A stretch of DNA of 64,000 bases, taken from NCBI GenBank assembly GCA_951406725.2, contig OX597832.1:69316001-69380000 (forward strand), in the 5' to 3' direction. The notes beneath the pieces are model-generated. The model had not been told where the DNA came from. It worked only from the letters and a program-made list of their open reading frames with translations, and searched no databases. The translations under genes were made by a program, and so were the position numbers. The stretch's first letter is position 1. Every line of letters begins with the position of its first letter. This document shows, piece by piece, positions 10,761 through 64,000 of this stretch. The DNA is from Octopus vulgaris. Lineage: Eukaryota.

Positions 10761-10931
10761 TATATATTTACACTCCAAAAAAGATAAGGAGTAGAATAGA
10801 TAAAATACAGACTGCAAATGTTTCATAACAAGCTGAAGTTTGTTACCTAAGAAGTAATGAACATAAATCAGCTTAGCTAATCTTCAGGTCTTAGTTACTT
10901 GATAGTATCTTTTTCCTGTGACAATCTGTAT

Positions 10932-14229
<3,298 letters not shown>

Positions 14230-54297: not shown

Positions 54298-54397
54298 NNN
54301 NNNNNNNNNNNNNNNNNNNNNNNNNNNNNNNNNNNNNNNNNNNNNNNNNNNNNNNNNNNNNNNNNNNNNNNNNNNNNNNNNNNNNNNNNNNNNNNNN
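54298..54397. other. Assembly gap (100 N)
   Basis: Run of exactly 100 n. The true distance and adjacency are unknown. Confidence 1.
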
Positions 54398-55244
54398 GGT
54401 GGATGGAGTTAGCTATTTGCTGGATGCTCTCCATAGTATTAGTTTCTATTACTATATCAACAGTACTCTCTTGTGGGGGTGCCTTTACTACTATATTGAT
54501 ATCATCAACATAGCGAGAGTACATGTTTACGAGTATGGATTTCTGCAGTAGGCATTCTTTAAGCCTTCTGTCCCACCATACCATGAAGAGGTTGGCCACA
54601 TCACCAGCGATACTAACACCGATGGCTGCCCCCTCGTCCTGGGCATATATTTTATTATTAAATTTAAATGTGTGGCCTTTTAGGGTAACTCTTATACTAG
54701 CTCCTAGTGCATGTGCGATCATTTTCTTTACCTGATGGACAATTGCGGGGCTCCGTATGGCTCTGGTCCATCCGCGCCATCTTTCTATATGTGTCTTCCT
54801 AGCCATAGAAGTAATTGTAGGCGGTCTACCTCTTAAACATCTACTGGGGCAGAAACTACTAAGATTATGTTTATCTAAGTATTCACTATTATATGTCAGT
54901 CTAAGTAGGAGGCCCAGTTCTTCTGTGTCGACATTACAGAACTCCACCTGGCTCTCGTTGATCATCTCCACGCACTTCTCCACTGCAACATCTACGTCAA
55001 TCGATGGGTATAGGGATACCACATCCATGCTACCTACTATACATCCTGTCAAGTCACAAGTTTTGTTACAGTCACTGATCCTGCTTAGGAGATCTTCTGT
55101 GCTGTCACACACATCAGGTGACATCCTGATTATAGGGCGTATGATCATTGAGAGGAAGTAGGAGATTCTGTAATTGCTAGCGATATTCGCTCCACAGACT
55201 GGTCTTGTTGGTGGTCCTGCTATAGGGTCAGTAAAACTACCCCA
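54398..55244 (-). mobile_element. Penelope-like element (PLE) reverse transcriptase, open frame, cut by the gap
   Basis: GPPTRPVCGA, IVGSMDVVSLYPSI, FKFNNKIYAQDEGAAIGVSIAGDVANLFM and YSRYVDDI are PLE/TERT-type RT motifs 2-5. No stop occurs from 55244 to the gap. Confidence 0.88.
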
Positions 55245-55334
55245 CTAAACACCCCAACCATAGACTACCAGTACTAGACACTGAACTCTGGCTAGAAATT
55301 GTGAAAAATAAAACCCAAATCCTTCATTCATACT

Positions 55335-56245
<911 letters not shown>

Positions 56246-56265: not shown

Positions 56266-56488
56266 ACATTGAATAATATGGGTTCAAAAAACGTTTTTTA
56301 CATAATTGTCACATTGAATATTATGCATTCAAAAAAGTTGTTTACATAATTGTCCCATTGGATATTATGGGTTCAAAAGTTTTACATAATTGTCACATTG
56401 AATATTATGCATTCAAAAAGTTTTTTACATAATTGTCACATTGGATATTATGAATTCAAAAATGTTTTTATACATAATTGTCACATTA
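56266..56488. repeat. About 40-44-bp minisatellite, about 5 copies
   Basis: Unit approximately acattgaatattatgcattcaaaaagttttttacataattgtc. Confidence 0.9.
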
Positions 56489-56980: not shown

Positions 56981-58062
56981 TACTTGTCAAGCTCCAAGCA
57001 TATAGTTTCCATCCGGATATTATACGATGGGTTGGTGCCTTCCTCTCAGATCGCTCCTTCCAAGTCCAAGTTAATGGTTCGCGGTCCGACGTCTCCAGTG
57101 CGAGCAGTGGCGTGCCTCAAGGTTCAGTGCTTGGGCCCTTGTTGTTCTTAGTCTTCATAAATGACTTGCCCGACGACCTCACGCAACACACCCTTCTATT
57201 TGCCGACGATATCAAACTGGTCGCTCCTCGCGGTAATATAGAGGATCTTCGTCGATGCCTCCACGAAATTTGGAAGTGGTCTAACGATTGGGACCTGTGT
57301 CTGAACGTGTCAAAGTGCTGTCATCTGCCTGTCGGCTCTACTCCTGCAACTCAACTTGATTTCGAGCCGGGTCGTCTGCTGCTGGAGAGGACCGATCAGG
57401 TAAAGGACCTGGGTATCTTGGTGGATTCCTCCTTTTCGCCTTCGGCCCAGTGCGTCCATGCTGCCAAAAAGCACGCGGAATTCTGTTCTTGATTCGACGG
57501 TCATTCGGAATGCTCACAGCAGCCATATTTCTACCACTCTATGTCACGCTGGTGAGACCCATATTGGAGTATGGGATTCAAGCCTCTTCTCCTTATCTCC
57601 TCAAAGACATACAGAATCTCGAAAGAGTCCAGAAGCTGGCTACCCGCATGGTTCATGGTCTCAAAAATTTGTCCTACGAAGAAAGGCTGAGGACGCTCGA
57701 CCTTTATTCTCTTGAAAAACGCCGCCGCCGTGGTGATCTCATTCTCGCCCACAACATCATAAGCGGAAAGTGTAACCTCTCGAAAGAGCTGTTCTTCACT
57801 CCTGCTCCAGAGCGTCGGCTGCGGGGTCATTCCGAAAAGCTCTACCTGCGACGATTTCATCTCAATCGAAGGAGAGGAGCTTTCTCCGTCCGGGTTGCGG
57901 ATCCGTGGAACAAGCTGCCAGACGAGATGGTGAAGATGCCGACGACCGCTTTGTTCAAAGCCTCCCTGGACCTCAAGTGGCCTGAACTCTTTACATGAAC
58001 ACCACCCTGTACTTAACTCCATGTCCCCCTACATGGCCTTGCTATTTGCTTTTGAGCCAAAT

Positions 58063-58074
<12 letters not shown>
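56981..58074 (+). mobile_element. Young CR1-type LINE 3' fragment (distinct family), (TAAC)n tail, in (TA)n
   Basis: [56 protein letters not shown]; a single frameshift in the A5 run at 57466-57470; stop at 57998; tail aattaactaactaac. Confidence 0.93.
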
Positions 58075-58107
<33 letters not shown>

Positions 58108-58108
58108 C

Positions 58109-58148
<40 letters not shown>

Positions 58149-58169
58149 TATATACACATATATATATAC

Positions 58170-58202
<33 letters not shown>

Positions 58203-58298
58203 CATAATATATATATACATATATATATATATATACACATATATATATACATATATATATACATATATATATACATATATATATACATATATATATAC

Positions 58299-58361
<63 letters not shown>

Positions 58362-58586
58362 TATATACATACATATATATATATATACATATATATATAT
58401 ACATATATATATATACATATATATATATATACATATATATATACATACATATATATATATACATATATATATACATACATATATATATATACATATATAT
58501 ACATATATATATACATATATATATACATATATATATACATATATATATACATATATATATATACATATATATACATATATATATAC

Positions 58587-58631
<45 letters not shown>

Positions 58632-58714
58632 TATACATATATATATACATATATATATATACATATATATATACATATAAATATATACATATATATATAT
58701 ACATATATATATAC

Positions 58715-58775
<61 letters not shown>

Positions 58776-58876
58776 CATATATATATACATATATATATAC
58801 ATATATATATATATACATATATATATATACATATATACATATATATATATACATATATATATACATATATATATAC

Positions 58877-58907
<31 letters not shown>

Positions 58908-59575
58908 CATATATACATATATATATATACACATATATATATATATATACATATATATATACATATATATATATACATATACATATATATACATATATAC
59001 ATATATATATACATACATATACACACACATCACACATATATACACATATATATATATACATATATACATATACATATATATATATACATATACATATATA
59101 TATATACATATACATATATACATATACATATACATATATATACATATACATATATATATACATATACATATATATATATATACATATATATATACATATA
59201 TATATATACATATATATATGTACATATATATATAAACATATATATATATACATATATATATATACATATATATATATACATATATATATATATACATATA
59301 TATATACATATATATATATACATATACATATATATATACATATATATATATACACATATATATATACATATATATATATACACATATATATATACATATA
59401 TATATACATATAGATATATATGCATATATATACATATATATATATACATATATATACATATATATATACATATATATACATATATATATACATATATATA
59501 CATATATATATATACATATATATACATATATATATATACATATATATATACATATATATACATATATATATATAT
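58075..59575. repeat. About 1.5-kb (TA)n-CA microsatellite array
   Basis: Directly visible (acatatatat-type units). Confidence 0.97.
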
Positions 59576-59880
59576 ATACAATAAAAATGGTAAATAATTT
59601 TCCTGTGGTTTTTCATGTAACCAACAATTATTTACCGGTAAATTTCGGTATGTAAATACGACAAAATAATTGTCAAGACCTTTGTAAGGTTCAGTATATA
59701 GTAAAGAAAAATAAGTTGGCTAGCAGCAAGCTGTTTCGCCTCATACCGAAGGAATTAGAAATGGCAGTCAAAGACCGTTTTTTCCATTTCTATAAGTGGA
59801 GATTCCAAAAACGAAGGCCCTTGCGGCTCACATACACAAAACCGGAGTGGCAAATATACGAATTCAGTCACTTACCATTA

Positions 59881-59952
59881 ATAGCGAACACGGTGTTTCT
59901 GGATCACAAACATATAAAAAAAGGGGAGTTTGAATTCCGTCATCAGCGCTAT
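59881..59952 (-). ncRNA. Type-I hammerhead ribozyme, copy 1
   Basis: Minus strand reads AUAGCG CUGAUGA c GGAauuCAAAC..GUUUGugaUCC a GAAA CAC C GU GUU CGCUAU. Confidence 0.78.
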
Positions 59953-60433
59953 ATTCGATAGCTTTATCAAATGCCACCAGCCCTCACTTCTGACTCCGCG
60001 ACATCAGATAGGGGGGAAGTGCGCAGATGTTCAAACCAAGTAACGACTGGGAACGTAAATTGTCCCTCCAAATTTCTGCCATGCGCGCCTTCTGGGTAAT
60101 CGTAATGGAATGAGGAATCCACATGGTAATACATTAAAAATGGTAAATAATTTTCCTGTGGTTTTTCATGTAACCAACAATTATTTACCGGTAAATTTCG
60201 GTATGTAAATACGACAAAATAATTGTCAAGACCTTTGTAAGGTTCAGTATATAGTAAAGAAAAATAAGTTGGCTAGCAGCAAGCTGTTTCGCCTCATACC
60301 GAAGGAATTAGAAATGGCAGTCAAAGACCGTTTTTTCCATTTCTATAAGTGGAGATTCCAAAAACGAAGGCCCTTGCGGCTCACATACACAAAACCGGAG
60401 TGGCAAATATACGAATTCAGTCACTTACCGTTA

Positions 60434-60504
60434 ATAGCGAACACGGTGTTTCTGGATCACAAACATATAAAAAAGAGGAGTTTGAATTCCGTCATCAGCG
60501 CTAT
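60434..60504 (-). ncRNA. Type-I hammerhead ribozyme, copy 2
   Basis: Same fold, 553 nt upstream of copy 1 on the minus strand; differs only in loop II. Confidence 0.78.
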
Positions 60505-60926
60505 ATTCGATAGCTTTTTGGAATCTCCACTTATAGAAATGGAAAAAACGGTCTTTGACTGCCATTTCTAATTCCTTCGGTATGAGGCGAAACAGCTTGC
60601 TGCTAGCCAACTTATTTTTCTTTACTATATACTAAACCTTACAAAGGTCTTGACAATTATTATGTCGTATTTACATACCGAAATTTACCGGTAAATAATT
60701 GTTGGTTACATGAAAAACCACAGGAAAATTATTTACCATTTTTATTGTATTACCATGTGGCTTCCTCATTCCATTACGATTACCCAGAAGGCGCGCATGG
60801 CAGAAATTTGGAGGGAAAATTTACGTTCCCAGTCGTTACTTGGTTTTAACATCTGCGCACTTCCCCACTATCTGATGTCGCGGGGTCAGAAGTGAGGGCT
60901 GGTGGCATTTGATAAAGCTATCGAAT

Positions 60927-60999
60927 ATAGCGCTGATGACGGAATTCAAACTCCCCTTTTTTTTATATGTTTGTGATCCAGAAACACCGTGTTCGCTAT
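60927..60999 (+). ncRNA. Type-I hammerhead ribozyme, copy 3
   Basis: Stem I ATAGCG 60927-60932 with CGCTAT 60994-60999; CTGATGA 60933-60939; GAAA 60981-60984; GUU triplet 60991-60993, predicted cleavage after 60993. Confidence 0.8.
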
Positions 61000-61043
61000 T
61001 AACGGTAAGTGACTGAATTCGTATATTTGCCACTCCGGTTTTG

Positions 61044-61044
<1 letters not shown>

Positions 61045-61076
<32 letters not shown>

Positions 61077-62024
61077 ACATATATATATATATACATATAC
61101 ATATATATATACATATATATATATACACATATATATATACATATATATATATACACATATATATATACATATATATATATACACATATATATATACATAT
61201 ATATATACATATATATATATACATATATATACATATATATATACATATATATACATATATATATATACATATATATACATATATATATATACATATATAT
61301 ACATATATATATATACATATATATACATATATATATACATATATATACATATATATACATATATATATATACATATATATATATACATATATATATATAC
61401 ATATATATACATATATATATACATATATATACATATATATATATACATATATATACATACATATATATACATATATATATACATATATATATACATATAT
61501 ATACATATATATATACATATATATACATATATATACATATATATATATACATATATATACATATATATATACATATATATATACATATATATATACATAT
61601 ATATATACATATACATATATATACATATATATACATATATATATATACACATATATATTCATATATATATATACACATATATATTCATATATATATATAC
61701 ATATATATATATATACATATACATTCATATATATATATACATATATATATATACATATATATACATATACATATATATACATATATATACATATATATAC
61801 ATATACATATATATATACATATATATACATATACATATATATATACATATATATACACATATATATACATATATATATACATACATATATATATATATAC
61901 ATATATATATACATATATATATACATATATATACATATATATATACATATATATATACATATATATATACATATATATATATATACATATATATATACAT
62001 ATATACATATATATATACATATAC

Positions 62025-62063
<39 letters not shown>

Positions 62064-62281
62064 CATATATATATACATATATATATACATATATATATAC
62101 ATATATATATATACATATATATATATACATATATATATATACATATATATACATATATATATATACATATATATATATACATATATATATACATATATAT
62201 ACATATATATATACATATATATATATACATATATATACATATATATTTATATATACATATATATATATATACATATATATA
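61045..62281. repeat. About 1.2-kb (TA)n-CA microsatellite array
   Basis: Directly visible; same strand polarity as 58075-59575. Confidence 0.97.
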
Positions 62282-64000
62282 CATGTTTTTCGGTCGGACA
62301 GGAAGGAAAGAACTCATGGTGGGGTTGCCCTCTGCGTCCGTGAAGATGTCACACCCATAGTACTGTTGACACACTCAAACTCAGTCTGTGACACACTGAT
62401 AGTACACATGAAACAACCGAAAATAGTAATATGTGTCACATATCGGCCACCAGACACCCCTAGTCATGAAGGAGTGTTTGAAGATAGCCTCAGAAGAATA
62501 GAAGAAATCCTGGACAAACTGGACCAGGGTAACACCATTCTACTGCTGGGAGATTTTAACCTTCCGAAAGTCAAATGGCCAGATGGCCATCTCCTCCCTG
62601 GAATGACATCACTTGAACAGAGACAGACAGAGTCCTTGTTGGCTCTCACACGCAAGTTTTTCATGGAGCAAGCAGTGCTTTGGCCAACAAGAGGTGAGAA
62701 TGTCTTGGACCTCTGTTTCACAAGCAACCCGATGCTCATCCACAACATAATGGTAACACCAACAATTCTCTCAGATCACAACTTAGTAGAGGTAATGATA
62801 TATGGTATGAGAGAGTTAGTTGAGACGCAGCCATTAGAAAATACCACAGGCCTATCCAGTCTAAACTTCCATAAGGCAAACTGGAAGAAAATCAACGAAG
62901 AGATCCGAAAACATGACTGGAGTGACTTCATCACCACACAAGACACCAACACACATTTCCAACATTTCATGACAACAATACAGAACATATGCCATAAGTT
63001 TGTCCCGGAGAAAAAAGCCAGCGGGCATAGGAACGTTATTCCCAGAGACAGGAAAATACTTATGAGGCGAAGAGCTAAGCTCTCGAAGCAACTGAATGCA
63101 CGGCAGAGAAACAATGAGGGACTCCACCTGAAACTTTTTGAAACGGAAACTGCACTCAAACTTTCCTATGAGAAGGAGAGGGCAGAGAGAGAAGCCAGGG
63201 CCATAGAGAATATTAAAACAAACCCTAAAGCCTTCTTTAAATTTGCGAAAGAAACCACCTCGGTACACTGCAAGATTGGCCCACTCTTTGATAAAAAGGG
63301 CTCTCTAACTGAGGACCCCCAAGGGATAAGTGAAATACTAAAGGAACAGTATAAAAGTGTGTTCACATCCCCTCTGGGGCACATGCAAATCACAAACCCA
63401 GAAGTTTTCTTTGATGCCACAACACTCCAAAACCAAACAACAACCATCGACCACATAGACATAACAGAGAGGGATGTAATATCTGCCATAGAAGAAATGA
63501 GAATAAACTCAGCTGCTGGACCAGATGGATTCCCAGCAGTCCTCCTAAAAACATGCAGGCATGCCCTAGCGGGACCACTGAAGAAGCTCTTCAGTGGTTC
63601 CTTGGCTAACGGTAAACTGCCCAGGGCGCTAAAAGAAGGCACCATATGCCCTATCCACAAAGGAGGGAGTAGAGCAGAGGCCAAAAACTACAGGCCAGTC
63701 TCCCTGACGTCACACATAAGTAAGGTCATGGAACGAATCATCAGAAAAAAACTGATCACGTTCCTCGAAGAAACTAACCGTCTCACTGACACACAGCATG
63801 GCTTTCGCCCAGGAAGAAGCTGCCTTACGCAGCTGTTACAACACTACGACTGGGTACTGAAACAACTACTGGATCGCTCACAGGTGGATGTGGTATATCT
63901 CGACTTTGCGAAGGCCTTTGACAAAGTCGACCACGGAGTGATATGTCACAAATTACTCAGACTCGGCATAACAGGAAAAGTAGGTGAGTGGATACATGAC
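62282..64000 (+). mobile_element. Young CR1-group LINE related to the 51-3212 family; ORF2 open to the window edge, 5' end abuts (TA)n
   Basis: Manual translation from 62282 gives 573 codons with no stop ([43 protein letters not shown]), colinear with about 357-2079. It is absent from the ORF track, probably because it runs off the edge. Confidence 0.93.

Follow-up and report, generated by a model that had tools for sequence, protein, structure and literature searches.

Two hammerhead motifs on the same strand, 553 nucleotides apart, raise the question of whether this Octopus vulgaris locus encodes an RNA that cleaves itself and circularises, and of how such a repeat was inserted there. A preliminary description had predicted that the pair would cleave as a dimer and release a 553-nt circular RNA. 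We analysed the window as a whole, that is, the 64-kb stretch of DNA whose first nucleotide is position 1 in the coordinates below. In our reading, to which we assign a probability of roughly 0.6, the locus is a single insertion, probably made by a Penelope-like element (PLE) that copied an abundant 553-nt noncoding hammerhead repeat into an older TA array; the repeat itself is likely a non-LTR retrozyme. The broader statement that the repeat is a PLE-mobilised hammerhead retroelement appears probable.

Hammerhead motifs and their conservation in the repeat family

A structure descriptor applied to both strands finds three type I hammerheads in the window. Hammerhead A (60434 to 60504, minus strand) has its stem I at 60504-60499, a CUGAUGA core starting at 60498 and U17 at 60440, and is predicted to cut at 60440/60439. 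Hammerhead B (59881 to 59952, minus strand) has its core from 59946, U17 at 59887 and a predicted cut at 59887/59886. The two cut sites are 553 nt apart on the minus strand, in agreement with the preliminary description, and the cut products of both hammerheads would start with CGCUAUUAA. The tandem of A and B, which extends over 1.7 units, is accompanied by an inverted third motif that had been overlooked, hammerhead C (60927 to 60999, plus strand), with its core at 60933 and U17 at 60993. The descriptor matches none of 3000 dinucleotide shuffles of the 553-nt unit.

All three copies contain the core C3-U4-G5-A6-N7-G8-A9, G12-A13-A14 and A15.1-U16.1 in type I order. Stem I has 6 bp, and in hammerheads A and B the 3 bp of stem II are followed by a further 5-bp helix, so the motif is not "minimal", as it had been called. 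The hammerhead family is absent from Rfam results both at the gathering threshold and at E<=10, where six weak and unrelated matches appear, all below gathering; a match to an Rfam model is not a defining biochemical feature of a hammerhead. Scanning for the core pattern alone yields 119 loci in metagenome contigs and 30 in viral contigs. We attribute these 149 public loci to chance, because none of them folds as a full hammerhead under the descriptor and none matches the 553-nt unit in blastn.

Stem III is indeed self-complementary, but the string AACAC-C-GUGUU by which it was originally described extends into A14 and U17. Without these two bases, stem III reads ACAC-C-GUGU, pairing over 3 bp as a monomer and over 4+4 bp as a dimer. 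Since the longer string takes in A14 and U17, the cut triplet of these hammerheads is GUU. This triplet fits the NUH rule, which allows it (PMC3138052); the natural hammerhead triplets tabulated in PMC1636495 are GUC, GUA and AUA, and GUU is absent from that tabulation.

The C.A noted earlier at the place of the 10.1/11.1 G-C pair (59939 and 59900 in hammerhead B) is present, but an intact G-C pair adjoins it and the C.A is family-wide. The arrangement can be read as a mismatch or as extra bases, and is better read as one extra base on each side of the intact G-C pair. Precedents include PLE hammerheads, in which A9 is described as being separated from the G-C pair by an additional base (PMC4209133), and the axolotl hammerhead HHR_Amex2, reported to have a U.U mismatch at the base of stem II and to cleave as a dimer (PMC7229834). 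No substitution reaches 8% at the C.A or in the core in three deep sequencing runs, in which positions near the ends of the stretch are less well covered, and the C.A is therefore not local decay.

The 553-nt repeat family is abundant and multi-copy. Part of the element is present in 20 of 24 listed public runs, and in four runs 602, 409, 523 and 4 contigs align to the unit; these are counts of contigs, and represent neither copy number nor expression level. Minority variants of stem III, which make up six of the seven rows of our minority-variant table, comprise four forms found in two runs: ACAUGU, ACACGUGU, ACAUGUGU and ACAUAUGU. They differ in length, yet each is self-complementary, in one case by virtue of G.U pairs, and U17 is retained throughout. 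Because the variants are related by descent, they are not four independent tests; as judged from the sequences, the kept self-complementarity implies selection for dimer pairing.

We inspected 19 of 112 loose contig ends. In two runs (three contigs each), such ends carry the core as CUGA-A-GA and CUGA-C-GA, differing at the free position 7 and leading into a diverged stem II. Another loose end, in two contigs of run X5, has U3 and A8 and resembles a known compensatory core. We set it aside as possible decay, because it differs at 12 of 30 nt, and a hand count assigns 9 of these changes to transitions. Within the unit, positions ~140-155 (~60285-60300 in the window, minus strand) resemble the 3' half of a hammerhead core, and the 5' half was not found; a split or permuted core was rejected, since the unit contains neither another CUGANGA nor a cut site to match it.

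A two-armed insertion in a TA array beside a Penelope-like fragment

The whole element occupies 59576-61048 and consists of two arms, a direct one on the minus strand and an inverted one on the plus strand, placed head-to-head within one TA array. The direct arm (59576 to 60517; 942 nt, or 1.70 units) starts at about unit position 476, spans two cut sites and ends at position 311, where its 3' end meets (TA)n through a TAT microhomology; the 553-nt unit between the predicted cut sites (59887 to 60439) lies within it. The inverted arm (60515 to 61048; 534 nt, or 0.96 unit) is 97.9% identical to the direct arm, starts at unit position 76, spans one cut site and likewise meets (TA)n at its 3' end, at position ~51. 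The 5' ends of the arms join at 60515-60517 over a 3-nt TTT microhomology. Self-comparison of the 64-kb window detected no further copy of the unit beyond these arms. The unit has 40% GC, and its longest ATG frames encode 55 amino acids in sense and 66 in antisense; a single 100-amino-acid TTG frame in the element has no Pfam match.

A perfect 14-nt palindrome (60183 to 60196) lies inside a 40-nt segment (60172-60211) that the element has in common with a diverged related family in all four runs. Contigs of that family covering the segment number 8 to 10 in each of three runs, and the fourth run has one contig of 528 nt; loose ends occur at 60172 and 60211. This segment is a candidate protein-binding or promoter site. 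A hairpin region at ~60305-60360 coincides with a depth peak and with loose ends like those of the diverged family, and the inverted arm begins at its edge (position 76).

On the left, the (TA)n microsatellite that served as target extends from 58075 to 59575, and on the right from 61045 to 62281. The plus strand contains TACA 113 times and TGTA once in the left array, against 102 and 0 times in the right one. Because the flanks have the same polarity, the array is older than the insertion. TA tails encoded by the element were rejected, since the polarity of the flanks is not symmetric with respect to the arms. A target-site duplication would be indistinguishable here, because both ends of the element lie inside (TA)n. 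We also rejected twin priming in the manner of L1, because the 3' end of the inverted arm (position 51) does not abut the start of the direct arm (position 476).

A two-armed fragment of a Penelope-like reverse transcriptase (RT) is located at 54399 to 55339, outside the retrozyme element and 4 kb away from it. Its direct arm (minus strand) corresponds to amino acids ~260-539 of the O. vulgaris protein P0001 and its inverted arm (plus strand) to amino acids 547-581; the arms join head-to-head near 55237, and the inverted arm ends in (TA)n at 55339. The frame at 54399-55244 (minus strand) is 99% identical to P0001. Downstream of its YVDD RT motif this protein has a CX2-5CxxC linker, and by eye a GIY-YIG-like stretch at its C terminus, which neither a regular expression nor Pfam scored; these sequence features agree with the definition of the Neptune/Nematis type in PMC8557442. 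PLE protein matches in the window are confined to ~54.4-55.3 kb. The 553-nt unit does not match the neighbouring fragment at the nucleotide level, and the element itself has neither an RT nor a GIY-YIG ORF, and by its coding content it is not an autonomous PLE. The search for PLE loci in viral contigs found none.

Some further observations concern this neighbourhood. The other side of the PLE fragment is cut by a gap of 100 Ns (54299-54398). Its sequence at 54978-55235 forms the N terminus of an annotated Octopus F-box/LRR protein isoform (P0059, dynein regulatory complex subunit 6-like X6), which may represent exon capture or an error of annotation; the remainder of P0059 does not map to the window. 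A 45-nt minisatellite with five copies (56266-56487) lies between two TA arrays. LINE pieces with Pfam RT matches are present at 51-2465, 10899-13979 (a 1026-amino-acid open frame with a weak PHD match) and ~56985-58070, and another piece, at ~62285-64000, was judged by eye. Because (TA)n also borders the fragment at ~56985-58070, TA flanks in this region cannot be called PLE-specific. Two LINE pieces abut the TA arrays of the retrozyme, and we accordingly regard 55-62 kb as an insertion hotspot.

The anatomy of the element bears on the PLE route in both directions. A partial tandem with an inverted, 5'-truncated copy between TA arrays is the pattern described for PLE insertions in PMC8557442, and the nearby PLE fragment, with the same head-to-head, TA-ended form, also counts in favour. 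Against the PLE pattern, the 3' ends of the direct and inverted arms (positions 311 and ~51) lie 260 nt apart, a spacing unlike the 30-40-nt PLE tail expected from two adjacent RT start sites, although fixed ends could be recognised only from more than one locus.

Alternatively, the structure might be an assembly artefact next to long microsatellites, or a satellite-like repeat might have been duplicated and inverted at the DNA level. The element lies between TA arrays of 1.2-1.5 kb that are difficult to assemble, several private differences fall in homopolymer contexts, and the junction is known from the assembly alone. Yet the tandem copies differ at 3 of 390 nt and the arms at 9 of 530, rates with no significant difference between them (Fisher p 0.26), and because each copy carries its own private substitutions, none is a collapsed duplicate of another. 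The nearby PLE fragment, which is unrelated, shows this geometry as well. We consider an origin by duplication or misassembly very improbable.

The direct arm has private letters at five positions where the inverted arm carries the majority letter; private alleles of this locus lie at 59995, 60012, 60032, 60062 and 60134. Alleles at 59997 and 60073, which account for at most ~3% of depth in three deep runs, are common to both arms. This fits one source for both arms, although it could also reflect a difference between host populations.

A PLE could also account for the locus more directly, if the unit were the pseudo-LTR (pLTR) of an autonomous PLE and the locus a truncated or locally duplicated remnant, in which case no independent retrozyme family would exist. 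The hammerhead is PLE-like, with an extra base after A9, a long helix II and a small palindromic helix III (PMC4209133), and Xenopus retrozymes are reported to be homologous to pLTRs (bioRxiv 10.64898/2026.07.22.740005). Here, however, units repeat tail-to-head without an ORF between the hammerheads, and a tail-to-head arrangement is also present in one contig from a public run (run X9, record 27). Moreover, none of the 19 inspected loose ends is recognisable as ORF sequence, which is a weak test at 30 letters each. A pseudo-LTR remnant is an improbable explanation, if slightly less so than duplication or misassembly.

Predicted dimer folding and cleavage, and possible templates for insertion

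The view that stem III is weak in a monomer and prone to dimerise is supported by computed energies of +2.1 kcal/mol for the monomer hairpin and -7.4 kcal/mol for the self-duplex. For a 658-nt transcript containing both ribozymes, predicted energies are -172.9 for the constrained dimer, -171.4 or -171.3 with one monomer active, -168.5 with both monomers active, and -174.7 without constraints. In the unconstrained minimum, A and B form a swapped dimer in which A14 and U17 additionally pair at each site. Across the ensemble, the dimer helix has a pair probability of 0.16-0.17 and the monomer helix one of ~0.01; the additional A14-U17 pair reaches 0.11-0.13. The dimer helix is thus predicted to be favoured ~15-fold over the monomer, yet to be a minority of the ensemble and mostly locked by A14-U17. 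The earlier argument for dimeric cleavage holds as far as folding is concerned, but is weakened by the A14-U17 pairing predicted in most dimers. Single-hammerhead local folds show no added stability relative to shuffles (z -0.36 to 0.01), and fold stability alone is therefore no evidence. On balance, we are inclined to think that the hammerhead cleaves as a dimer at some rate. For comparison, in vitro cleavage is reported for only one of nine predicted Xenopus retrozyme dimers (bioRxiv 10.64898/2026.07.22.740005).

Release and circularisation of a monomer of this type would follow the known retrozyme pathway (PMC7229834), and the 553-nt unit folds as a self-paired circular monomer (minimum free energy -147.5 kcal/mol; z -3.2 relative to 60 shuffles). 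This copy is, however, a doubtful source of circles. Read-through transcripts from either flank are predicted to form a hairpin of ~530 bp with an energy of about -1045 kcal/mol. In minus-strand read-through RNA the inverted arm pairs with all 73 bases of hammerhead B and with 470 of the 553 bases of the monomer, leaving only hammerhead A in the loop, and in plus-strand RNA 73 of 74 bases of hammerhead C are paired. According to these folds, a circle from the locus would need transcription to start within ~80 nt upstream of hammerhead A or near the arm junction. Because hammerhead B is buried in the hairpin, the monomer prediction suits the family better than this copy. By analogy with other retrozymes, circular RNA has about the same chance of existing as of not existing for the family, while the folding makes it unlikely that this locus makes 553-nt circles. 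The copy at 59576-61048 is probably a passive product whose inverted arm would trap read-through RNA.

How the element could have arisen is suggested by combining these predictions with the insertion anatomy. Tandem source copies would be transcribed, and neighbouring hammerheads would exchange strands by way of their self-complementary stem III and then cleave after the GUU triplet, in a reaction that is probably slow or protein-aided. A host ligase might close the 553-nt monomer into a circle, as in other retrozymes. A PLE enzyme would then nick (TA)n and reverse-transcribe from both DNA ends, and the cDNAs, if templated in this way, would run through the cut site for the 1.7 and 0.96 unit lengths observed in the arms. 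Finally, the two cDNAs would join head-to-head over the 3-nt microhomology present at the junction. The protein of an anole PLE, for which a dimer is predicted, nicks and extends both strands, and in that system the uncut multimer was the favoured template in vitro (PMC11167929).

If the template spanned the cut site, it could be a circle or an uncut multimer. A circular template is the retrozyme model (PMC7229834) and has also been proposed for PLEs (PMC4209133), and by this analogy we lean to the circle, at about even odds. The PLE could instead have copied uncleaved multimers without a circle intermediate, with the GUU hammerhead being weak or gated by protein. Both arms cross predicted cut sites, as expected of uncut RNA, and the A14-U17 lock is predicted. 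Metazoan PLE hammerheads are reported to cleave poorly in vitro (PMC4209133). Experiments on the anole PLE point the same way: its hammerhead mutants inserted normally, no RNA-seq ends were reported at the cut, and cleavage required protein (PMC11167929). As uncleaved RNA was the main substrate in that system, no circle is required. However, stem III has kept its self-complementarity over four variants of different length, and circles have been shown for coral, mussel and axolotl retrozymes (PMC7229834). We regard copying of uncleaved multimers as a minority possibility, though the most serious of the alternatives considered here.

Returning to the retrozyme interpretation, a more specific and rather speculative version is that this octopus lineage uses a GUU-cutting obligate dimer that stays locked by A14-U17 until a Penelope protein binds, and that both arms were made from one RNA circle by a doubly primed Penelope RT dimer. 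If this is true, rolling-circle reverse transcription has left a direct fossil in the form of the 1.7-turn arm.

Comparison with known retrozymes and Penelope-like elements

The literature listings searched here include no paper on an octopus retrozyme, although the further invertebrate examples in the supplement of PMC7229834 may include cephalopods. The terms hammerhead, ribozyme and retrozyme do not occur in the main text of the 2026 O. vulgaris repeat annotation (PMC13282606). By sequence criteria, the 553-nt repeat is likely a further family of metazoan non-LTR retrozyme, with little that is new in kind.

The repeat resembles metazoan non-LTR retrozymes as described by Cervera and de la Pena (2020, PMC7229834) in being an ORF-free tandem with one type I hammerhead per unit, a GC content below 50%, multiple copies, a self-paired monomer and a weak palindromic helix III suited to dimers. 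It differs from them, as described there, in its GUU triplet, in its length (553 nt, compared with 150-450 bp), and in its inverted head-to-head arm within (TA)n, and the element is known here from DNA alone. Its length is inside the 51-972 bp range given for PLE-derived retrozymes by Li, Clavereau and Pollet (2026, bioRxiv 10.64898/2026.07.22.740005), whose elements likewise have two consecutive units with complete hammerheads in genomes containing PLEs. That study bases the link between retrozymes and PLEs on phylogeny and on homology to pLTRs, for the most part in vertebrates; no mollusc is named among the sampled classes in its available text. The link proposed here comes from insertion anatomy. 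Compared with PLE hammerheads (Cervera and de la Pena 2014, PMC4209133), those of the octopus element have a second extra base (A) before G12, a U at position 17, and a 6-bp stem I extended past a 3x3 loop.

The enzyme that mobilises animal retrozymes and the question of a circular template are both discussed in the literature (PMC7229834; bioRxiv 10.64898/2026.07.22.740005). Two-armed copies beside a PLE of the same anatomy make the idea of a PLE partner testable from the genome alone, and the family supplies a natural, C.A-containing hammerhead with a GUU triplet that is predicted to act as a dimer. The closest parallel in insertion structure is provided by the Neptune, Nematis and Naiad PLEs (Craig et al. 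2021, PMC8557442). Like the octopus element, these insertions are described as having a partial tandem, an inverted, 5'-truncated copy at the 5' end and a microsatellite target. Unlike those PLEs, the octopus element has neither an RT nor a GIY-YIG ORF and no discernible 30-40-nt tail.
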